Below, one piece after another: positions 1 through 12,708 of a stretch of DNA of 12,708 nucleotides. The notes beneath the pieces are model-generated. The model was not told the origin of the DNA and searched no databases. It worked only from the letters and a program-made list of their open reading frames with translations. Source of the stretch: a virus (taxonomy: Duplodnaviria > Heunggongvirae > Uroviricota > Caudoviricetes). How positions within the stretch are numbered: position 1 is the stretch's first letter; each line of letters begins with the position of its first letter. The position numbers and the translations under genes are program-made. The stretch is from the IMG/VR virus record IMGVR_UViG_2548876945_000010, positions 1 to 12,708 of that record; one strand, 5' to 3'.

Positions 1-996
1 TTATGGACGCATTATGGACATTCCTGACACCGGGTTAAGAGTCACAGCATCTTGTAAGAAATCCGGTGCAAAGTGTGCGTAGGTCATAGTTTGCTGAATG
101 TTAGAATGACCCAGGATGCGCTGCAATGTGATTATGTTACCTCCATTCATTATAAAATGTGTGGCAAATGTATGCCTCAAAACATGTACTGCTTGTCCGT
201 CAGGTAAATCGGGTTTTACTTCCCTGAGAGCGTTACGCACTTTGTAGTAACTGGCATTAAAAAGCCTGCCTGAATTTTTGGTCTTGATCCGTTTAATCAG
301 GTCCTGCGAAACGGGAATTGTCCTGCGTTTTCCGTTTTTAGTTTTCATAAACGTAACCATCTGGTTAATGATGTGTTCAGCTTTTAAATTAGACACTTCA
401 CTCCAGCGTCCACCAGTAGAAAGGCAGACCAGAGTTGCATTTAATTCATCACCATCAAGCATGGATAACAGCCGCGTAATCTCTTCACTGGACAAAAAAG
501 CCATTTCCGTAACAGCTTCACGTAACCGTTTAATCTCACGGAACGGGTTGTGGGAGTGGTATTCACCGGCGTCAATTAACTTGGTGAACATCCCGCTCAT
601 TATTGCCAGATGTCGATTTACGCTGGCTGGTTTTAGACCATCGTTCATCATTACAACGCGATAATCAGTTATCGTTTTCTTTGTTAGCTGGTCAGCTCTG
701 GACACTCCCATTTCTGCAAATTTGGCGATTATTGTCGTTAAACGCCCCCGTTCAATATCTCCACGCTCATGTGATTTTCCGTGATATATCCACCATCTAC
801 CTAACAACTCTGTAAGAGTTCGGCGGTCGGCTGGTTTCTCCAACCACTCTTTGTTGTGGTAGTTAACCAATACATGACGTTCGAATGCCTGAGCTTCACC
901 TTTAGTTTTAAATTTCCGCCTGATACGTTTTCCATCTGCACCCTGCGGTCTGACGTCCACTTCATAACGACCATCATCGAGCTTTTTAATAGACAT
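1..996 (-). CDS. int: tyrosine site-specific integrase (P2 Int-like)
   Basis: 331-aa ORF, ATG at 996..994, stop at 3..1. N-terminus MSIKKLDDGRYEVDVRP resembles P2-family integrases; C-terminal HVLRHTFATH ... LGHSNIQQTMTYAHF carries the His-x-x-Arg and catalytic Tyr motifs of tyrosine recombinases. GGAGGG Shine-Dalgarno lies upstream on the minus strand. Confidence 0.9.
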   Translation of the reverse strand: MSIKKLDDGRYEVDVRPQGADGKRIRRKFKTKGEAQAFERHVLVNYHNKEWLEKPADRRTLTELLGRWWIYHGKSHERGDIERGRLTTIIAKFAEMGVSRADQLTKKTITDYRVVMMNDGLKPASVNRHLAIMSGMFTKLIDAGEYHSHNPFREIKRLREAVTEMAFLSSEEITRLLSMLDGDELNATLVCLSTGGRWSEVSNLKAEHIINQMVTFMKTKNGKRRTIPVSQDLIKRIKTKNSGRLFNASYYKVRNALREVKPDLPDGQAVHVLRHTFATHFIMNGGNIITLQRILGHSNIQQTMTYAHFAPDFLQDAVTLNPVSGMSIMRP

Positions 997-3122: not shown

Positions 3123-3346
3123 TGCCGGACAACGTAGATTTTATTCAGGAACAACAGGCTGAATTACTGGAGCGTCAGATTAACGCGGCAAGGGTAAAAC
3201 ATTGCGGTGCTTCTGCGCTGGTTTGCGAAGAGTGTGACGCGCCAATACCTGCTGCCCGTCGTGCGGCTTATCCGTCAGCCACGCGTTGTGTTTCCTGCCA
3301 GTCAGTCTTTGAAGCAAAAAACAAGCATTACCGGAGAATGGCATGA
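3122..3346 (+). CDS. TraR/DksA-family C4 zinc-finger protein (position of P2 orf82)
   Basis: 74 aa with CxxC-(17)-CxxC (VCEECDAPIPAARRAAYPSATRCVSC) after a helical N-terminus, typical of the phage TraR/DksA zinc-finger family; AGGAG SD upstream. Confidence 0.75.
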   Translation: MPDNVDFIQEQQAELLERQINAARVKHCGASALVCEECDAPIPAARRAAYPSATRCVSCQSVFEAKNKHYRRMA

Positions 3347-3618
3347 GTATTCGTATCGAAATTGGCGAACGTTATGTCGTTACCAGTGACAGCTTTCAGT
3401 TTATTCTCCACGAGAAAAAGAGAGCGGAAAGCGGTAAAAACGCCGGTCAGGAATGGCTGGCGGTGGTTGGTTATTACCCGAAATTAAGCCAGCTCGTTTC
3501 CGGCCTGATGCATCACGATATTCTGACCGGAAGCGCAAAGTCTTTTGCTGATTTAAACGCGCAGGTTGAGCAACTCAGCAGGCGTTGTTCAGAGGCTTTT
3601 GGCTCATATGGCCGTTAA
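3343..3618 (+). CDS. hypothetical early protein (position of P2 orf83)
   Basis: ATG 3343 overlaps the previous stop (ATGA); 91 aa; 3' end overlaps the start of gene A. Confidence 0.5.
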   Translation: MSIRIEIGERYVVTSDSFQFILHEKKRAESGKNAGQEWLAVVGYYPKLSQLVSGLMHHDILTGSAKSFADLNAQVEQLSRRCSEAFGSYGR

Positions 3619-5779
3619 AGCCTCCGGGCGTTTTGTCCCTCCGTCAGCATTTGCCGCAGGCACCGGTAAGACGTTTGCCGGTGCTTATGCATGGAACGCG
3701 CCACGCGAGGCTGTCGGGCGCGAAAGACCCCTTACACGTGATGAGATGCGTCAGGTGCAAGGTGTTTTATCCACGATTAACCGCCTGCCTTACTTTTTGC
3801 GCTCGCTGTTTACTTCACGCTATGACTACATCCGGCGCAATAAAAGCCCGGTACACGGGTTTTATTTCCTCACATCCACTTTTCAGCGTCGTTTATGGCC
3901 GCGCATTGAGCGCGTGAATCAGCGCCATGAAATGAACACCGACGCGTCGTTGCTGTTTCTGGCAGAGCGCGACCAGTATGCGCGCCTGCCGGGGATGAAT
4001 GACAAGGAGCTGAAAAAGTTTGCCGCCCGTATCTCATCACAGCTTTTCATGATGTATGAGGAACTCTGCGATGCCTGGGTGGATGCGCATGGCGAGAAAG
4101 AATCGCTGTTTACGGATGATGCGCAGGCTCACCTCTATGGTCATGTTGCTGGCGCTGCACGTGCTTTCAATATTTCCCCGCTTTACTGGAAAAAATACCG
4201 TAAAGGACAGATGACCACGAGGCAGGCATATTCTGCAATTGCTCGTCTGTTTAACGATGAGTGGTGGACTCATCAGCTTAAAGGCCAGCGTATGCGCTGG
4301 CATGAAGCGTTACTGATAGCTGTCGGGGAGGTCAATAAAGACCGTTCTCCTTATGCCAGTAAACACGCCATTCGTGATGTGCGTGCGCGCCGCCAGGCAA
4401 ATCTGGAATTTCTTAAATCGTGTGACCTTGAAAACAGGGAAACCGGCGAGCGCATCGACCTTATCAGTAAGGTGATGGGCAGTATTTCTAATCCTGAAAT
4501 TCGCCGGATGGAGCTGATGAACACCATTGCCGGTATTGAGCGTTACGCCGCCGCAGAGGGTGATGTGGGGATGTTTATCACGCTGACCGCGCCGTCAAAG
4601 TATCACCCGACACGTCAGGTCAGAAAAGGCGAAAGTAAAACCGTTCAGCTTAATCACGGCTGGAACGATGAGGCATTTAATCCAAAGGATGCGCAGCGTT
4701 ATCTCTGCCGCATCTGGAGCCTGATGCGCACGGCATTCAAGGATAATGATTTACAGGTCTACGGTTTGCGTGTCGTCGAGCCACACCACGACGGAACGCC
4801 GCACTGGCATATGATGCTTTTTTGTAATCCACGCCAGCGTAACCAGATTATTGAAATCATGCGTCGCTACGCGCTCAAAGAGGATGGCGACGAAAGAGGA
4901 GCTGCGCGAAACCGTTTTCAGGCAAAACACCTTAACCGGGGCGGTGCTGCGGGGTATATCGCAAAATACATCTCAAAAAACATCGATGGCTATGCACTGG
5001 ATGGTCAGCTCGATAATGATACCGGCAGGCCGCTGAAAGATACTGCTGCGGCTGTTACCGCATGGGCGTCAACGTGGCGAATTCCGCAATTTAAAACGAT
5101 TGGCCTGCCGACAATGGGGGCTTACCGTGAACTACGCAAATTGCCTCGCGGCGTCAGTATTGCTGATGAGTTTGACGAACGCGTCGAGGCTGCTCGCGCT
5201 GCCGCAGACAGTGGTGATTTTGCGTTGTATATCAGCGCGCAGGGTGGGGCAAATGTCCCGCGCGATTGTCAGACTGTCAGGGTTGCCCGTAGCCCGTCGG
5301 ATGACGTTAACGAGTACGAGGAAGAAGTCGAGAGAGTGGTCGGCATTTACGCGCCGCATCTCGGCGCGCGTCATATTCATATCACCAGAACGACGGACTG
5401 GCGCATTGTGCCGAAAGTTCCGGTCGTTGAGCCTTTGACTTTAAAAAGCGGCATCGCCGCGCCTCGGAGTCCTGTCAATAACTGTGGAAAGTTCACCGGC
5501 GGTGACGTTCCGGTTATGCACCCTACACCGTCTGAGCATGCCGCAGCGGTGTTAAATCTGGTTGATAGTGGTGTTATCGGATGGGATGACCCGGAAGTTG
5601 TGACGGTGCTCAGGAGTGCATTAAAACATGGTGCACCGAGACCGAATTGGCAACAAAGAAACTGCGAACCATTAAAACCGTACCAGATAGCGCCATCAGG
5701 GCGGATGACAAAGGCTGAACGTTCGCAGATTCCACGCATCCATTTCGAGCTGGCACTAATTGGTAAAACCTATCAATAG
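3608..5779 (+). CDS. A: rolling-circle replication initiator endonuclease (P2 gpA-like, HUH superfamily)
   Basis: Large ORF; I place the start at ATG 3608 (MAVKASGRFVPP..., as I recall P2 A) rather than the track ATG 3566. It has an HUH-like motif PHWHMMLF (His codons 4802..4810) and the paired-tyrosine motif GYIAKYISK (Tyr codons 4955..4957 and 4967..4969), similar to phiX174 gpA YxxKY. Confidence 0.85.
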   Translation: MAVKASGRFVPPSAFAAGTGKTFAGAYAWNAPREAVGRERPLTRDEMRQVQGVLSTINRLPYFLRSLFTSRYDYIRRNKSPVHGFYFLTSTFQRRLWPRIERVNQRHEMNTDASLLFLAERDQYARLPGMNDKELKKFAARISSQLFMMYEELCDAWVDAHGEKESLFTDDAQAHLYGHVAGAARAFNISPLYWKKYRKGQMTTRQAYSAIARLFNDEWWTHQLKGQRMRWHEALLIAVGEVNKDRSPYASKHAIRDVRARRQANLEFLKSCDLENRETGERIDLISKVMGSISNPEIRRMELMNTIAGIERYAAAEGDVGMFITLTAPSKYHPTRQVRKGESKTVQLNHGWNDEAFNPKDAQRYLCRIWSLMRTAFKDNDLQVYGLRVVEPHHDGTPHWHMMLFCNPRQRNQIIEIMRRYALKEDGDERGAARNRFQAKHLNRGGAAGYIAKYISKNIDGYALDGQLDNDTGRPLKDTAAAVTAWASTWRIPQFKTIGLPTMGAYRELRKLPRGVSIADEFDERVEAARAAADSGDFALYISAQGGANVPRDCQTVRVARSPSDDVNEYEEEVERVVGIYAPHLGARHIHITRTTDWRIVPKVPVVEPLTLKSGIAAPRSPVNNCGKFTGGDVPVMHPTPSEHAAAVLNLVDSGVIGWDDPEVVTVLRSALKHGAPRPNWQQRNCEPLKPYQIAPSGRMTKAERSQIPRIHFELALIGKTYQ

Positions 5780-5882
5780 TGATTTAATGAAATTTCGGAG
5801 TCATAAATATTGTGTATTTAACTAGATGATTGCAATATAAGTGCTTATTATTTATGCGATTATAGCCATAACGGAGCTGAGT

Positions 5883-6812
5883 ATGAGTGTTGCAAGGCAT
5901 CATCATTTTTTATCCCAATGTTATTTGAAAGGGTTTACAAGTAATGGGGGGAAAAAATCAAAATTAACTGTAATAGATTTAAAGGAGCGCAAAACCTTTG
6001 AGAGTAATACTCGCAATGTCGGGGGGGTTAGAGATTTCAACCGATTAGAATTGGATGGAGTTGACCCAAACTATCTCGAGAGTTCTCTTGCAGAGTTTGA
6101 AGGCAGTGTCGCTACTCATTTAAGAAAACTTGAGGAGGGGGGCGAGTTTTCAGGCGAAACCAAAGATGTTATTCTGGAGTTTATTTCCTTATTGGCAATA
6201 CGTACGCCTGCTCAGCGAGAACATTTATCATCTCCATTGAAACAAATAGCAAAGTTTATCATGAAATCCTCAGTTAGTTCGGCTGAGCGTTGGGACGATT
6301 GCAAATTAGCTTATGAGAAAGAAATGGGTGAGTCTTTGCCATATGATCTCGCTTACGAAAAAATTAAAAATTTTGTGGATGGGGATAATTTCGAAATCAA
6401 TGTAATCAGAGAGTTCATGATAGATATGGAAATGAAATGTGTACCTGTTATCACCAAGTTGTTGCATCAACGCAACTGGTCTCTTATGACCATATCTGAT
6501 GGGCAAGGGTCATTTATAACTTCAGATAACCCAGTTTGCTTAATGTGGACTAATCCTGAATTAGCACGAGGCCCTTATTCCCCCGGGTTTGGTGTAAAAG
6601 ACACTTTAGTTTTGTTCCCAGTATCAAAAAACCTTCTTTTGGCGGGCGAGTTTGATGGTCATGAGGGTGTATTCAGTTGTAATGAGGAGCAGGCTGCGGT
6701 CTTCAATACTTCAGTCATTCGGCATACCGCAGAAAGAATATTTTCATCTAATGATAATTTCAAATTTTTAGACTCATCTAAAAAAATGAAGCAAGGCAAA
6801 AGCCTGGTTTGA
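5883..6812 (+). CDS. AT-rich cargo gene at the P2 tin/old hotspot; DUF4238-like candidate anti-phage defence protein
   Basis: 309-aa ORF from ATG 5883 (GGAG upstream; the track GTG at 5841 is less likely). N-terminus MSVARHHHFLSQCYLKGF fits the HHxxxQxYLKxF signature I associate with DUF4238. Strongly AT-rich unlike the flanking phage genes, and located between the A stop and cos. Confidence 0.65.
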   Translation: MSVARHHHFLSQCYLKGFTSNGGKKSKLTVIDLKERKTFESNTRNVGGVRDFNRLELDGVDPNYLESSLAEFEGSVATHLRKLEEGGEFSGETKDVILEFISLLAIRTPAQREHLSSPLKQIAKFIMKSSVSSAERWDDCKLAYEKEMGESLPYDLAYEKIKNFVDGDNFEINVIREFMIDMEMKCVPVITKLLHQRNWSLMTISDGQGSFITSDNPVCLMWTNPELARGPYSPGFGVKDTLVLFPVSKNLLLAGEFDGHEGVFSCNEEQAAVFNTSVIRHTAERIFSSNDNFKFLDSSKKMKQGKSLV

Positions 6813-7215: not shown

Positions 7216-8250
7216 TCAGCCGTTGTCAGTGTCCAGTGAGTAGTTTTTAAAGCGGATGACCTCCTGACCGAGCCAGCCGTTTATCTCGCGGATCCTGTCC
7301 TGTAACGGGATAAGCTCATTGCGGACAAAGACCTTTGCCACTTTCTCAATATCACCCAGCGACCCGACGTTCTCCGGCTTGCCGCCCATCAACTGAAAGG
7401 GGATGCGGTGCGCGTCCAGCAGGTCAGCGGCGCTGGCTTTTTTGATATTAAAAAAATCGTCCTTCGTTGCCACTTCACTGAGCGGGATAATTTTAATGCC
7501 GTCGGCTTTTCCCTGCGGGGCATAGAGAAACAGATTTTTAAAGTTGTTGCGGCCTTTCGACTTGACCATGTTTTCGCGAAGCATTTCGATATCGTTGCGA
7601 TCCTGCACGGCATCAGTGACGTACATGATGTATCCGGCATGTGCGCCGTTTTCGTAATACTTGCGGCGGAACAGCGTGGCTGACTCATTCAGCCAGGCAG
7701 AGTTAAGGGCGCTGAGATATTCCGGCATGCCGTACAGCTCCTGATTAATATCCGGCTCCAGCAGATGAAACACGGAGCCGGGCGCGAAAGGTGTCGGCTC
7801 GTTGAAGGACGGCACCCACCAGTAAACATCCTCCTCCACGCCACGGCGGGTATATTTTGCCGGTGAGGTTTCCAGTCTGATGACCTTACCGGTGGTGCTG
7901 TAACGCTTTTCCAGAAACGCATTACCGAACACCAGAAAATCCAGCGCAAAGCGGCTGAAATCCTGCTGGGAAAGCCACGGATGCGGGATAAATGTCGAGG
8001 CCAGAATATTACGTTTGACGTAAATCGGTGAGCTGTGATGCACGGCAGCACGCAGGCTTTTTGCCAGACCGGTAAAGCTGACCGGTGGCTCATACCATCT
8101 GCCGTTACTGATGCACTCGACGTAATCCAGAATGTCACGGCGGTCGAGTACCGGCACCGGCTCGCCAAAGGTGAATGCTTCCATTTTCGGGGCGTTGGCG
8201 GTCATTTTTTTTGCCGCAGGTTGCGGTGTTTTCCCTTTTTTCTTGCTCAT
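7216..8250 (-). CDS. Q: portal protein (P2 gpQ-like)
   Basis: 344-aa ORF, ATG at 8250..8248 with GGAG upstream, stop 7218..7216. Length equals P2 Q and it sits next to cos and the terminase gene; its start overlaps the P stop (TGATG). Confidence 0.9.
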   Translation of the reverse strand: MSKKKGKTPQPAAKKMTANAPKMEAFTFGEPVPVLDRRDILDYVECISNGRWYEPPVSFTGLAKSLRAAVHHSSPIYVKRNILASTFIPHPWLSQQDFSRFALDFLVFGNAFLEKRYSTTGKVIRLETSPAKYTRRGVEEDVYWWVPSFNEPTPFAPGSVFHLLEPDINQELYGMPEYLSALNSAWLNESATLFRRKYYENGAHAGYIMYVTDAVQDRNDIEMLRENMVKSKGRNNFKNLFLYAPQGKADGIKIIPLSEVATKDDFFNIKKASAADLLDAHRIPFQLMGGKPENVGSLGDIEKVAKVFVRNELIPLQDRIREINGWLGQEVIRFKNYSLDTDNG

Positions 8251-9311
8251 CAGTAAAACTCCAGAATGGTGGATGTCAGCGGGGTGCTGATACCGGCGGT
8301 GAGTGGCTCATTTAACAGGGCGTGCATGGTCGCCCAGGCGAGGTCGGCGTGGCTGGCTTCCTCGCTGCGGCTGGCCTCATAGGTGGCGCTGCGCCCGCTG
8401 CTGGTCATGGTCTTGCGGATAGCCATAAACGAGCTGGTGATGTCGGTGGCGCTGACGTCATATTCCAGACAGCCACGGCGGATAACGTCTTTTGCCTTGA
8501 GCACCATTGCGGTTTTCATTTCCGGCGTGTAGCGGATATCACGCGCGGCGGGATAGAACGAGCGCACGAGCTGGAACACGCCGACACCGAGGCCGGTGGC
8601 ATCAATACCGATGTATTCGACGTTATATTTTTCGGTGAGTTTGCGGATGGATTCCGCCTGGGTGGCAAAGTCCATACCTTTCCACTGGTGACGCTCAAGT
8701 ATTCTGAATTTGCCACCGGCCACCACCGGCGGTGCCAGTACCACGCATCCGGCGCTGTCGCCACGGTGTGACGGGTCGTAACCAATCCATACCGGTCGGG
8801 AGCCGAACGGATTTGCGGCAAACGGCGCATAGTCTTCCCATTCTTCCAGCGTGTCGACCATGCAGCGTTGCAGCTCCTCGAACGGGAATACCGATGCCTT
8901 GTCATCAACAAATTCACACATGAACAGGTTTTTAAAATCGTCGGCGCTGTTTTCGCGTTTAAGCTGCTCAATGTCGAACAATGTGCAGCCACCTTTCAGG
9001 GCGTCCTCAATGGTGACAATCTGCCGCCACTGGCCGTCCGCACAGAGAAGACCTCCGGCAAGGGCGTTATGACTGACGTCGATTTCCACGCGTTCGGCGG
9101 CGCTGGCGCGTCCCCGGTTGAACAGTTCACCTGACCAGAACGGGTAGGCGTCGTGCGCCAGCGTGGACGGGGTGGAGAAATAGGTCGAGCGCAGGTGACT
9201 CTGTGAGGCCATACCTGATGCCACCTTACGCAGTACCTGAAAAGCCGCGCTGCATCGTGAGTCAAATCTGATGAAGACCTTTGCGCTACAGGGCGACACG
9301 CTTGACGCCAT
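8250..9311 (-). CDS. P: terminase large subunit (P2 gpP-like), C-terminal portion only; N-terminal ATPase region apparently missing
   Basis: 353-aa ORF directly upstream of and coupled to Q. Contains VWIGYDPSHRGDSAGCVVL, like the start of a terminase nuclease domain; no Walker A (GxxxxGKT/S) is present. P2 P is about 590 aa as I recall, and the first ~15-20 codons of this ORF overlap the X gene on the opposite strand so are probably not P-derived. Confidence 0.6.
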   Translation of the reverse strand: MASSVSPCSAKVFIRFDSRCSAAFQVLRKVASGMASQSHLRSTYFSTPSTLAHDAYPFWSGELFNRGRASAAERVEIDVSHNALAGGLLCADGQWRQIVTIEDALKGGCTLFDIEQLKRENSADDFKNLFMCEFVDDKASVFPFEELQRCMVDTLEEWEDYAPFAANPFGSRPVWIGYDPSHRGDSAGCVVLAPPVVAGGKFRILERHQWKGMDFATQAESIRKLTEKYNVEYIGIDATGLGVGVFQLVRSFYPAARDIRYTPEMKTAMVLKAKDVIRRGCLEYDVSATDITSSFMAIRKTMTSSGRSATYEASRSEEASHADLAWATMHALLNEPLTAGISTPLTSTILEFY

Positions 9312-9474
9312 TTGTGTCCGGTATTACGGGCGCACTGAGGGCGTGGTTGAGACCGTGCTCGCCGCAAATCCGGGACTGGCTGAACTGGGTGCGGTGCTGC
9401 CACACGGCACCGCCGTCGAACTGCCCGACGTTCAGACCGCGCCCGTGGCTGAAACTGTCAATCTGTGGGAGTAA
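9271..9474 (+). CDS. X: tail protein X (P2 gpX-like, LysM-like)
   Basis: 67 aa, MKTFALQGDTLDAICVRYYGRTEGVVETVLAANPGL..., matching P2 X in length and sequence as recalled; immediately precedes the holin. Confidence 0.8.
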   Translation: MKTFALQGDTLDAICVRYYGRTEGVVETVLAANPGLAELGAVLPHGTAVELPDVQTAPVAETVNLWE

Positions 9475-9477
9475 CGC

Positions 9478-9759
9478 ATGACAGCAGAAGAAAAAAGCGT
9501 CCTGTCGCTTTTCATGATTGGGGTGCTGATTGTTGTCGGCAAGGTGCTTGCCGGTGGTGAACCCATCACCCCGCGTCTGTTTATCGGGCGCATGTTGCTC
9601 GGTGGTTTTGTCTCGATGGTTGCCGGTGTTGTTCTGGTGCAGTTTCCTGACCTGTCACTGCCTGCGGTGTGCGGTATCGGCTCCATGCTGGGTATCGCCG
9701 GTTATCAGGTGATTGAGATTGCCATTCAGCGCCGCTTTAAGGGTAGGGGGAAACCGTAA
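9478..9759 (+). CDS. Y: holin (P2 gpY-like)
   Basis: 93 aa with hydrophobic transmembrane segments (LSLFMIGVLIVVGKVLAGG, LLGGFVSMVAGVVLV, GIGSMLGIAGY) and a charged C-terminal tail; stop overlaps the K start (TAATG). Confidence 0.8.
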   Translation: MTAEEKSVLSLFMIGVLIVVGKVLAGGEPITPRLFIGRMLLGGFVSMVAGVVLVQFPDLSLPAVCGIGSMLGIAGYQVIEIAIQRRFKGRGKP

Positions 9760-10256
9760 TGCCGGTTATTAACACGCATCAGAATATCGCCGCCTTTCTC
9801 GACATGCTGGCCGTGTCCGAAGGGACGGCAAACCATCCGCTGACGAAAAACCGGGGCTATGACGTGATAGTCACCGGACTGGACGGGAAGCCGGAAATTT
9901 TCACCGACTACAGTGACCACCCGTTCGCACATGGCCGACCGGCGAAGGTGTTTAACCGTCGCGGTGAAAAATCCACGGCCTCCGGTCGCTATCAGCAGCT
10001 TTACCTGTTCTGGCCGCATTACCGCAAACAGCTTGCCCTGCCGGATTTCAGTCCGTTGTCACAGGACAGACTTGCCATTCAGTTGATCCGCGAACGCGGT
10101 GCACTGGATGACATCCGGGCGGGACGCATTGAGCGAGCCATTTCACGCTGTCGCAATATCTGGGCGTCCCTGCCGGGTGCCGGTTACGGTCAGCGTGAGC
10201 ATTCACTGGAAAAACTGGTCACCGTCTGGCGTACCGCTGGCGGCGTACCGGCTTAA
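9759..10256 (+). CDS. K: endolysin (P2 gpK, lambda R-like lytic transglycosylase/lysozyme)
   Basis: 165 aa; FLDMLAVSEGT...GYDVIV...FTDYSDHP...SGRYQ...GALDDIRAGRIERAISRCRNIWASLPGAGYGQ closely parallels lambda R (FLDMLAWSEGTD...IWASLPGAGYGQ) as I recall it. Confidence 0.9.
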   Translation: MPVINTHQNIAAFLDMLAVSEGTANHPLTKNRGYDVIVTGLDGKPEIFTDYSDHPFAHGRPAKVFNRRGEKSTASGRYQQLYLFWPHYRKQLALPDFSPLSQDRLAIQLIRERGALDDIRAGRIERAISRCRNIWASLPGAGYGQREHSLEKLVTVWRTAGGVPA

Positions 10257-10270
10257 ACGGAGTAAACACC

Positions 10271-10696
10271 ATGAAGAAATTATCCCTTTCACTGATGCTG
10301 AACGTGTCGCTGGCGCTGATGCTGGCACTGTCCCTGATTTACCCGCAGAGCGTGGCCGTCAATTTTGTCGCCGCCTGGGCGATTCTGGCGACGGTTATCT
10401 GTGTGGTTGCCGGTGGTGTCGGCGTGTATGCCACTGAGTATGTGCTGGAACGCTACGGGCGGGAGCTGCCGCCGGAATCGCTGGCCGTGAAGATTGTCAC
10501 GTCGCTGTTTTTGCAGCCGGTGCCGTGGCGCAGACGGGCGGTGGCTCTGGTGGTGATGGTGGCGACGTTTATCTCGCTGGTCGCTGCCGGGTGGATTTTT
10601 ACCGCGCTGATTTATCTCGTGGCGTCGGTGTTCTTCCGGCTGATACGTACGGCCTGCCGTCAGCGTTTTGAGGGGCGGGAACCATGTCAAAGCTGA
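10271..10696 (+). CDS. lysA: LysA-like membrane protein (lysis timing)
   Basis: 141 aa with several hydrophobic helices; position and length match P2 lysA. Confidence 0.7.
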   Translation: MKKLSLSLMLNVSLALMLALSLIYPQSVAVNFVAAWAILATVICVVAGGVGVYATEYVLERYGRELPPESLAVKIVTSLFLQPVPWRRRAVALVVMVATFISLVAAGWIFTALIYLVASVFFRLIRTACRQRFEGREPCQS

Positions 10697-11109
10697 TGAT
10701 TGTGATGGTTGTGCTGTTATCGCTGGCGGTGGCGGGGCTGTTTCTGGTGAAGCATGAAAACGCCAGCCTGCGCGCCTCGCTGGACAGGGCGAACAACGTC
10801 GCCAGCGGGCAGCAGACGACCATCACCATGCTGCAAAATCAGCTTCATGTTGCCATCACCAGGGCAGACAAAAACGAGCTGGCGCAGGTGGCACTGCGTC
10901 AGGAACTGGAGAACGCCGCGAAGCGTGAAGCACAGCGCGAGAAAACCATCACGAGGTTACTTAATGAAAACGAAGATTTTCGCCGCTGGTACGGTGCTGA
11001 CCTGCCTGATGCTGTGCGCCGGTTGCACCAGCGCCCCGCCTGCACTGACGCCAGTGATTGTCGCCAACGCCTGCCCGAAAGTGAGCCTTTGCCCGATGCC
11101 GGGCAGTGA
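10684..11109 (+). CDS. lysB: LysB, Rz-like inner-membrane spanin
   Basis: 141 aa; N-terminal TM helix (LMIVMVVLLSLAVAGLFLV) followed by a charged, predicted coiled-coil region; contains the embedded +1-frame lysC gene. Confidence 0.75.
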   Translation: MSKLMIVMVVLLSLAVAGLFLVKHENASLRASLDRANNVASGQQTTITMLQNQLHVAITRADKNELAQVALRQELENAAKREAQREKTITRLLNENEDFRRWYGADLPDAVRRLHQRPACTDASDCRQRLPESEPLPDAGQ

Positions 11110-11152
11110 CCCGCAGACGAACGGCGATTTAAGTGCCGATAAGCGGAATTAA
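10964..11152 (+). CDS. lysC: LysC, Rz1-like outer-membrane lipoprotein spanin
   Basis: 62-aa ORF starting inside lysB in another frame; signal peptide plus lipobox (MKTKIFAAGTVLTCLMLCAGC) and a Pro-rich mature part. Confidence 0.7.
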   Translation: MKTKIFAAGTVLTCLMLCAGCTSAPPALTPVIVANACPKVSLCPMPGSDPQTNGDLSADKRN

Positions 11153-11414
11153 AACGGCCAGCGTGACGGCTTCTGATTCTGTTACTGCCACGGTGCCGGT
11201 GGTCATGGTGAAAGCATCAACCCGCGTCACCCTGGACACACCGGAGGTGGTCTGCACCAACAGGCTGATTACCGGCACGCTGGAAGTGCAGAAGGGCGGG
11301 ACGATGCGCGGCAACATTGAACACACCGGCGGTGAACTCTCATCAAACGGTAAGGTACTGCATACCCATAAACACCCCGGTGACAGTGGCGGCACAACAG
11401 GGGGACCTCTATGA
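11153..11414 (+). pseudogene. V: remnant of baseplate spike gene V (C-terminal fragment only)
   Basis: Only about 260 bp separate lysC from W, where P2 has R, S and V (about 1.5 kb). The ORF ends ...NGKVLHTHKHPGDSGGTTGGPL, which I tentatively recognise as a gpV-type His-rich C-terminal apex, and its stop overlaps the W start (ATGA). Confidence 0.4.
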
Positions 11415-11758
11415 CAGCGCGTTATCTCGGAATGAATCGCAGTGATGGCCTGACTGTCACTGACCTTGAGCATATCAGCCAGAGTATCGGCGATATCCTG
11501 CGCACACCGGTCGGCTCACGGGTGATGCGTCGTGATTACGGCTCGTTGCTGGCGTCAATGATTGACCAGCCGCAGACCCCGGCGCTTGAGTTGCAGATTA
11601 AAGTCGCCTGTTACATGGCAGTGCTGAAATGGGAACCCCGCGTCACCCTGTCATCCGTCACCACGGCGCGCAGTTTTGACGGGCGAATGACGGTCACGTT
11701 AACCGGCCAGCACAACGACACCGGCCAGCCACTTTCGTTAACCATCCCTGTGAGTTGA
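11411..11758 (+). CDS. W: baseplate wedge protein W (gp25-like)
   Basis: 115 aa (same as P2 W), MTARYLGMNRSDGLTVTDLEHISQSIGDILRTPVGSRVMRRDYGS..., a GPW/gp25-family pattern. Confidence 0.85.
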   Translation: MTARYLGMNRSDGLTVTDLEHISQSIGDILRTPVGSRVMRRDYGSLLASMIDQPQTPALELQIKVACYMAVLKWEPRVTLSSVTTARSFDGRMTVTLTGQHNDTGQPLSLTIPVS

Positions 11759-11762
11759 AACC

Positions 11763-11897
11763 ATGCCGATTATCGACCTGAACCAGCTACCCGCACCGGA
11801 TGTGGTCGAGGAGCTGGACTTTGAAACCATTCTTGCTGAACGCAAGGCGACACTGATTTCCCTTTACCGAATACAGCGTCGTGACCGGAGGCTCTGA
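11763..11897 (+). pseudogene. J: baseplate protein J, internally deleted/truncated (44 codons)
   Basis: ATG 11763 encodes MPIIDLNQLPAPDVVEELDFETILAERKATLISLY... (J-like N-terminus) but stops at 11895..11897, overlapping the I start (TGATG); P2 J is about 302 aa as recalled. Below the ORF-track length cutoff, found by reading. Confidence 0.5.
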
Positions 11898-12508
11898 TGA
11901 GTGATTCGCGACTGCTGCCGACCGGCTCATCACCGCTTGAAGTCGCTGCCGCAAAAGCCTGTGCGGAAATTGAAAAAACGCCGGTCAGTATTCGTGAGCC
12001 GTGGAACCCGGACACCTGCCCGGCAAATCTGCTGCCGTGGCTGGCGTGGTCATTTTCGGTTGACCGCTGGGATGATAAGTGGCCGGAAGCGACAAAACGC
12101 GCTGTTATCCGCGATGCGTATTTCATTCACTGCCATAAGGGCACTATAGGCGCAATCCGGCGTGTGGTGGAGCCGCTCGGCTATCTGATTGAGGTGAGGG
12201 AGTGGTGGCAGCTCAACGAGGAGCCGGGGACGTTCCGGATCGTTGTTGGCGTGCTTGAGCAGGGTATTACCGAGGAAATGTATCAGGAGCTGGAGCGCCT
12301 CGTTGCTGATGCAAAACCGGCAAGCCGCCATCTGACGGGACTGGCTATCAGTTTAAGTACAACCGGCAACATTTTTGCCGGTGCGGAATGCTATCACGGT
12401 GACGCCCTGACGGTTTATCCCTACACCCCGGAGGCCATTATTGTCGGAGGGGATTATTTCCCGGCCTCGGCCATTCATTTAATTGATAACCTGAGAGTAA
12501 ACGCATGA
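11897..12508 (+). CDS. I: baseplate assembly protein I
   Basis: 203-aa ORF, MSDSRLLPTGSSPLEVAAAKACAEIEKTPVSIREPWNPDTCPANLLPWLAWSFSVDRWDD..., in the P2 I position; stop overlaps the H start (ATGA). Confidence 0.8.
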   Translation: MSDSRLLPTGSSPLEVAAAKACAEIEKTPVSIREPWNPDTCPANLLPWLAWSFSVDRWDDKWPEATKRAVIRDAYFIHCHKGTIGAIRRVVEPLGYLIEVREWWQLNEEPGTFRIVVGVLEQGITEEMYQELERLVADAKPASRHLTGLAISLSTTGNIFAGAECYHGDALTVYPYTPEAIIVGGDYFPASAIHLIDNLRVNA

Positions 12509-12708
12509 CAGTGAAATACTACGCCATTCTGACTAATCAGGGCGCAGCACGGCTGGCTAACGCGACGATGCTCGGCAGTAAGCTGAATCTGACGCAAATG
12601 GCCGTTGGTGATGCGAATGGTGTCTTGCCGACACCAGACCCGGCACAGACAAAACTGATTAACCAGAAACGCATCGCGCTGAACCGCCCCGGGAATCCTG
12701 GAGACTAA
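12505..12708 (+). CDS. H: tail fibre protein H, N-terminal segment only (ORF stops after 67 codons at the window end)
   Basis: N-terminus ...TQMAVGDANGVLPTPDPAQTKLI resembles the conserved tail-fibre N-terminal domain (P2 H ...TTMAVGDGGGKLPVPDAGQTGLI). P2 H is about 669 aa, but here a TAA at 12706..12708 ends the frame. Confidence 0.6.
   Translation: MTVKYYAILTNQGAARLANATMLGSKLNLTQMAVGDANGVLPTPDPAQTKLINQKRIALNRPGNPGD

Follow-up and report, generated by a model that had tools for sequence, protein, structure and literature searches.

The stretch of DNA analysed here (the window, 12,708 nt) is a P2-like prophage (Peduoviridae) of E. coli that has become defective, as established from an ORF listing, Pfam scans and BLAST comparisons with phage records. 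Its gene order (int-C-cox-B-A ... Q-P / X-Y-K-lysA-lysB ... V-W-J-I-H) is that of P2, and its collinear blocks share 87-98% nucleotide identity with P2 and 98.2-99.97%, depending on the block, with the prophage of E. coli strain GPEC1209. The latter prophage, which is intact and adjoins pflA, is the closest relative among 5426 complete E. coli genomes (99.9% identical).

The genes for lysogeny and replication have been kept. The integrase gene (1-996, minus strand) and the replication gene A (3566-5779) enclose the C repressor, cox and B genes together with small ORFs, all assigned by ORF listing and Pfam, and int, C, cox, B and A are intact. Next to them, in the position of the P2 accessory (old/tin) hot spot, lies an intact DUF4238 gene (5841-6812, plus strand), with a PADLOC hit to the candidate defence family DUF4238-Pers (E = 1.8e-219). 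This candidate defence gene has been kept while the virion genes decay.

The late genes are in a very different state. The portal gene Q (7216-8250, minus strand) is followed by a fragment of the terminase gene P (8250-9243, minus strand) that comprises the C-terminal ~330 codons; the ORF listed for this fragment (353 aa, 8250-9311, minus strand) carries 22 foreign codons added at its N-terminus. The genes X, Y, K, lysA and lysB and a shortened lysC separate the P fragment from a fragment of gene V (11142-11414, plus strand), which consists of only the C-terminal 92 codons (Phage_spike and Apex domains) and has neither its native start nor the pV promoter. Gene W (GPW_gp25; 11411-11758, plus strand) is intact. 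It is followed by a 44-codon ORF in the position of the baseplate gene J (11763-11897, plus strand), by an intact and full-length gene I (Tail_P2_I; 11897-12508, plus strand), and by the 5' end of the tail-fibre gene H (first 58 codons; 12505-12679, plus strand), which is cut by an insertion sequence whose left end (IS629; 12680-12708, plus strand) closes the window. An Rfam scan of the window gave no match.

The complete head, tail and late-promoter functions of an intact inducible phage are thus missing: O, N, M, L, R and S are gone, P, V, J, H and lysC are shortened, the pO/pP site has been lost and the pV interval deleted. A similar condition has been described for Sp13 of E. coli O157:H7 Sakai, a P2-type prophage that has lost most morphogenesis genes and kept integrase, repressor and replication genes (PMC2669165). 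The prophage studied here belongs to a different lineage from Sp13, although both keep lysogeny and replication genes. Defective P2 elements that keep intact, near-identical defence genes have also been reported (PMC13586616).

The J remnant and its overlap with gene I

The 44-codon ORF starts with ATG and begins MPIIDLNQLPAPDVVEELDFETILAERKATLISLY. A sequence-only reading of this DNA had recognised a J-like N-terminus in it, and rightly so, since residues 1-35 align with residues 1-35 of P2 gpJ at 34 of 35 positions (97%; BLASTP, E = 8e-22). Residues 36-44 (RIQRRDRRL) do not align with P2 gpJ in the same search, and a Pfam scan of the 44-aa product gave no match. In the intact relative, the Baseplate_J domain (PF04865) covers residues 118-261 of a J protein of ~302 aa (E = 9e-24).

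The origin of the ORF became clear when the window was aligned to P2, to phage T22-P2 (phage P2 of strain T22) and to the GPEC1209 prophage. The alignment consists of four collinear blocks separated by three gaps, one of which falls within J and measures exactly 767 bp against all three references. About 255 internal codons of J are missing, the whole Baseplate_J domain lies inside the gap, and both flanks are collinear with intact J. The retained 5' end contains codons 1-35 plus one nucleotide (11763-11868, plus strand) and the retained 3' end contains 36 nt, coding for EYSVVTGGSDE and the native TGA (11869-11904, plus strand). Since 767 mod 3 = 2, the reading frame is shifted by the deletion, and the 3' end is out of step with the ORF (+1 frame). 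That frame reads …FTEYSVVTGGSDE up to the native stop at 11902-11904, so that the gpJ C-terminus (TEYSVVTGGSDE and stop) is still present as DNA but not in the frame of the N-terminus. The ORF itself is made up of 35 native codons, nine out-of-frame codons and TGA. Because the deletion is out of frame, the residues RIQRRDRRL are what the shifted frame makes of the final 27 nt ahead of the start of gene I.

An in-frame internal deletion of about 250 codons that spared both ends of J had been suggested for this locus. The deletion is indeed internal, its size had been closely estimated and both ends were spared, but its length of 767 bp rules out that it is in frame. In the alignment with P2 J that had been proposed as a check, the N-terminal residues are represented in the 44-aa product and the C-terminal ones are not, both ends of the gene surviving as DNA in different frames. 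The remnant thus resembles P2 gpJ in its N-terminal 35 residues, in its start, in its place between W and I and in its 3'-terminal 36 nt, but it is no member of the gpJ family in a functional sense.

The junction of the J deletion is located at 11865-11868 and is formed by a TACC microhomology (…CCCTTTACC/GAATACAGC…; here and below, a slash within a sequence marks the break). The parental sites are TTTACC/CGGAAGAC and TGTACC/GAATACAG, in which TACC is exact and 10 of 12 positions are alike if a 2-nt gap is allowed, and the deletion is flanked by the imperfect match TnTACC(CG)GAAnAC. A single event of illegitimate recombination, either replication slippage or microhomology-mediated joining, probably fused these two similar sites. 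It would have joined J codon 35/36 (…CTT TAC C/CG…) to …TGT ACC/GAA…, 31 nt before the start of gene I, removing 767 bp with the whole Baseplate_J domain and shifting the frame by +1. Translation, if there is any, would run from the native J start through nine nonsense codons to a TGA that pre-existed out of frame in the J/I overlap (TCTGATGAGTGA).

The last base of the ORF's TGA (11895-11897) doubles as the first base of the gene I ATG (11897-11899), and the TGATG overlap noticed from the sequence is therefore real (11895-11899). In phage late operons, coupled genes likewise have a stop and a next start that share a base (ATGA or TGATG). However, the overlap at the J remnant is an old out-of-frame TGA that is read after the frameshift. 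The native J/I pair overlaps by 8 nt (ATGAGTGA), and the intact GPEC1209 relative has an identical TCTGATG (in the context GGAGGCTCTGATGAGTGA). P2 has TCGGATGA at this position, and the same frame would stop one codon later. A compensatory G-to-T change creating the TGA was considered and rejected, since the T is already present in the 99.9%-identical intact prophage.

The geometry of the gene end makes such overlaps frequent. Counted from the ATG of gene I, the last stops of the three frames in intact J stand at -15, -2/+1 and +5. When all 322,806 internal J deletions of at least 100 bp were enumerated in the intact relative, 52% of them gave an ORF ending within -3 to +6 nt of this ATG, and the proportion rose to 74% for deletions whose right end falls within the last 60 nt of J. 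Given these proportions and the presence of the TGA in the intact relative, the TGATG overlap is what chance predicts and is not evidence of selection; this tidy arrangement is inherited sequence plus geometry rather than adaptation. Gene I also has its own Shine-Dalgarno sequence, GGAGG (11887-11891, plus strand), which lies 5 nt upstream of its ATG and inside the retained 3' end of J.

Three deletions and a later insertion

The other two gaps of the alignment are also deletions with short microhomologies. At the first junction (9242-9243, AA; 4267 bp missing), the minus-strand P gene is cut at codon ~260 and fused to a position 27-32 nt ahead of X. This deletion has removed P codons 1 to ~260, the divergent pP/pO promoter region, the genes O, N and M and almost the whole of L. 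The second junction (11140-11141, TA; 2186 bp missing with respect to GPEC1209 and 2291 bp with respect to P2) joins lysC at about codon 44 to V codon 120, and the 3' end of lysC, the attenuator, R, S, an accessory ORF, the pV region and V codons 1-119 have been lost with it. All three deletions thus carry microhomologies of 2-4 bp (AA, TA and TACC), and none of their lengths (4267, 2186 or 2291, and 767 bp) is divisible by three. In their 2-4 bp of identity within longer imperfect matches, these junctions are like those of short-homology illegitimate recombination in E. coli.

With respect to promoters, the activator site of P2 pO/pP is found verbatim in the intact relative and is absent from the window, and the interval containing the site annotated as pV in P2 falls within the second deletion. 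A consensus scan of positions 8900-12708 detected no sigma-70-like promoter. Out-of-frame deletions together with the loss of the pO/pP and pV regions make retained expression of the downstream genes unlikely. The P and V fragments had been seen from the sequence as part of a pattern of clean deletions preserving downstream coupling. Both are indeed deletion fragments, but the lengths are not multiples of three, and the pO/pP region and the P2-annotated pV interval have disappeared.

The insertion sequence in H was identified by BLAST as IS629 (97.9% identity to annotated IS629), its end sequence having given no match in a literature search. It is complete in a sister contig (L004, 10918-12227), where it measures 1310 bp and is flanked by a 3-bp CGC target duplication. 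One sister lineage (L006) has an uninterrupted H at the insertion site, indicating that IS629 is younger than the three deletions. At least four lesions have thus accumulated in this prophage, namely three deletions and, later, the IS629 insertion that splits H.

The V'-W-J' block (11140-11868) shows 98.2% identity to the GPEC1209 prophage (13 SNPs in 729 nt), whereas the other three blocks show 99.6-99.97%, and its recombinational history seems to be unlike that of the rest. In two sister contigs (L008 and L010), the SNP clusters that distinguish them from the window are confined to gene A and its upstream ORFs (window 3175-5314). These clusters suggest recombination with other P2-like prophages after the deletions had taken place.

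Two alternatives to simple gene decay have been put forward for this locus, an artefact of assembly, scaffolding or cloning and a selected translational coupling, and both had been raised in the sequence-only reading. An artefact would be expected to leave the junction in a single assembly. None of the three junctions is present in the 5426 complete genomes of E. coli (a set taken from the complete-genome assemblies of RefSeq as a whole), a result that an artefact would also give, and the J junction is absent from the GTDB species representatives. However, the exact 44-aa product occurs in 55 blocks of a large assembly collection. The contigs that bear it number about 30, come from NCBI, ENA and Logan and include one of 5.0 Mb; the source names given to the product are 'hypothetical protein' or 'baseplate J family domain protein', from E. 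coli. The J junction together with the same shortened gene layout is carried by seven contigs from independent assemblies, and the exact P/X and lysC/V junction strings are found in six contigs each. One of the seven contigs (GCA_000446585.2, AIBB01000025.1) matches the window at 100% identity along 10,946 nt. SNP clusters and the presence or absence of IS629 set the sublineages apart, as expected for vertical inheritance. A search with the 320-aa P fragment was unspecific and returned frameshifted P genes of other prophages. The same junctions in many independent assemblies indicate that the locus is naturally inherited, and the probability left to an artefact is negligible.

In the second alternative, the J remnant and its overlap would have been maintained by selection to deliver ribosomes to gene I, within a pattern of clean deletions. 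Points in its favour are the existence of the overlap, the integrity of W and I and, for two of the three deletions, a right end about 30 nt ahead of the following ATG. The right ends of the first and third deletions lie about 28-32 nt before the starts of X and I, respectively, so that the ribosome-binding sites have been spared, and the chance of this, calculated post hoc, is about 0.009. These positions are the sole feature that could hint at selection, and they have been treated as a coincidence because the landing site of the third deletion is the one that best resembles the donor site. Against coupling stand the shifted frame, which makes the deletion anything but clean, an overlap that is unchanged from the intact phage and that most J deletions would yield, the ribosome-binding site that gene I itself possesses, the deleted late-promoter regions, with no late promoter found upstream of the remnant, and one sister contig in which gene I is split as well. 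In P2 baseplate assembly, moreover, the gene I product, a baseplate protein, is not known to have a role in the absence of J, V, H, R and S, all of which have been destroyed here. Selection to keep downstream expression is thus very improbable, and a neat stop/start overlap is in itself no evidence of it. The 44-codon ORF is most probably an ordinary, non-functional pseudogene remnant of J, left in a decaying P2-like prophage by an internal deletion that shifted the frame, and we assign to this reading a probability of about 0.9. A point on the other side is that read-through transcription may reach the block at 11100-12700.

Recurrent breakpoints in J and lysC

The position at which the deletion leaves J is not peculiar to this prophage. 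Public assemblies of E. coli and Salmonella contain at least 12 independent deletions that start at the left breakpoint CTTTA/CCCGG (codon 35/36; 11865-11868 in the window and 24318-24321 in L003, found also in L018, L019, L020 and L021) and three that end there. Every junction at this site fits a break directly after TA (TA/CC, 11866/11867). The survey was carried out by searching the 44-aa remnant against a database of 5.8 billion protein clusters, and 65 short stubs of the J N-terminus were returned. Twelve distinct stubs leave J at residue 35/36, each with a different out-of-frame tail, and the tails were mapped by tblastn to the J 3' end, I, H (two), FI, FII (two), T, D and the ogr region, two of them being unmapped. 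Between residues 28 and 56, 12 of the 21 structural junctions fall at residue 35/36 (P ~6e-13; 2e-11 after correction), a count that refers to protein clusters rather than to reconstructed events and comes from called short ORFs, which favour early breaks. Three of the junctions at the J site have been confirmed at the DNA level. In a control search with J residues 1-90, structural junctions elsewhere in E. coli-type J were few (about 11 at residues 28-142).

The search for the second junction led to E. coli LZHX12, which carries a different P2-like prophage (92-98% identical). In this prophage, a 2911-bp deletion has its left end at the lysC breakpoint of the window and its right end at the J breakpoint (GCCGATA/CCCGGAAG). 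The J site therefore also serves as a right breakpoint, in LZHX12 as well as in P0171 and P0165. The lysC breakpoint (GATA/TCCGGCAG, that is, GATA/TCCGG; window 11140-11141, L003 21407-21408) accounts for five events and has been reused in LZHX12, P0198, P0186 and P0188. A small quasi-palindrome (GCCGAT·ATCCGGC) is centred on it, and the attenuator hairpin of the O operon follows 20 nt downstream. The J and lysC sites have 8 of 10 nt in common (TAYCCGGMAG, a motif defined post hoc; chance 4e-4), and this motif has no other match in P2 or in the GPEC1209 relative. The sequences TTTACCCGG and TTTACCCGGAAG belong to the tract of the J hot spot.

Other breakpoints have been reused too. The V breakpoint of the second deletion (11142, V codon 120) occurs again in E. 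coli KTE156 (L021, 2376-2380), where it is joined to the end of Y, and the V'-W-J' block therefore has the same ends in two different contexts. In KTE156, the order of the fragments is L'-X-Y'/V'-W-J'/FII'-E'/J piece/FII'-E/L' (L021, 1549-4746), although this sequence adjoins a scaffold gap and part of its structure may be assembly-derived. A further remnant (L012, 3933-11545) has Q joined to the D/ogr region with the order inverted. Duplications and an inversion are seen in these P2-like remnants, which are pieced together from short stretches of late genes. Within the ogr region, one site (TGTCCTTTA/TGCCAGC; L001, ~24013-24019) is the right partner of three deletions anchored in J (at J residues 35, 44 and 89; P0018, P0016 and P0070).

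Gyrase or topoisomerase sites, a REP-like sequence (TATCCGGC), a Mu-type target pentamer, CRISPR PAMs and small quasi-palindromes centred on TA would be conceivable causes of the J hot spot. Several other candidate causes were examined. Nicking by P2 gpA at the replication origin (GCGCCTCG/GAGTCC; CG/G, the nick position being taken from the GenBank annotation) predicts junction sequences that were not observed. An invertase of the Cin/Gin type was discarded as well, because its natural site (TTCTCGCATACC-TT-GGTTTGGGAGAA) mismatches the sequence flanking the TA break. A search for an integrase att-like sequence next to int gave none. The folding of single-stranded DNA around the J site is unremarkable (z ~0), with no stable hairpin. 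Homopolymer runs abound at the site (T3C3T3AC3G2A2), and stubs with 1-nt frameshifts have accumulated there too, although sequencing errors may account for some of them. Owing to these runs and stubs, slippage or pausing of the polymerase is taken as the default explanation.

The recurrence of the left breakpoint in many unrelated prophages indicates that the initiating lesion may not be random slippage. The J deletion could instead have begun at a sequence-specific break or replication pause, at CTTTA/CCCGGAAG and at its lysC sister site GATA/TCCGGCAG, the free end being joined to any downstream sequence with a few matching bases, so that the J remnant would be just one of the products. Such a break would account for the concentration of junctions with different partners at residue 35/36, for the use of the J site as a right breakpoint and for the repeated use of a lysC site of similar sequence. 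It would also fit the supply of microhomology at the J site, which is only average and fails to predict the breakpoints. In this respect, breakpoints at the same nucleotide in unrelated prophages, with many partners, are unlike the short-homology recombination known from E. coli. However, the positions of the junctions agree with neither the gpA nick nor the natural invertase sites, the folding of single-stranded DNA is unremarkable, simple polymerase slippage may suffice in view of the homopolymer runs and the 1-nt frameshifts, the survey is biased to early breaks, and the shared 10-mer was recognised post hoc. We regard a sequence-specific break as rather unlikely, and slippage remains the preferred explanation for the J deletion.

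Significance for prophage decay

The 44-codon ORF is of little weight in itself. It is a gene remnant to be flagged as a pseudogene and not annotated as 'baseplate J family domain protein'. The locus as a whole is a textbook case of prophage domestication, in which the lysogeny and replication genes and the DUF4238 gene have been kept and the virion genes shredded.

The pattern of recurrent breakpoints might be the only part of this locus of interest to the specialist. Deletion hot spots, at least two in number (J codon 35/36 and lysC codon ~44) and marked by the 10-mer TAYCCGGMAG, could be inherent to P2-like phages, and a sequence-specific break, nick or replication arrest at them would time and again start large deletions in either direction. 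This proposal is doubtful. If it were true, deletion from these hot spots would be one of the chief ways in which E. coli and Salmonella prophages of the P2 type are inactivated, and the ORF described here would be one footprint of it. Provided that the breakpoints are real and sequence-specific, prophage decay would be channelled in part through defined fragile sites, which would bear on the dating of defective prophages, on the counting of independent losses and, possibly, on the recoding of P2-based vectors and tailocins.
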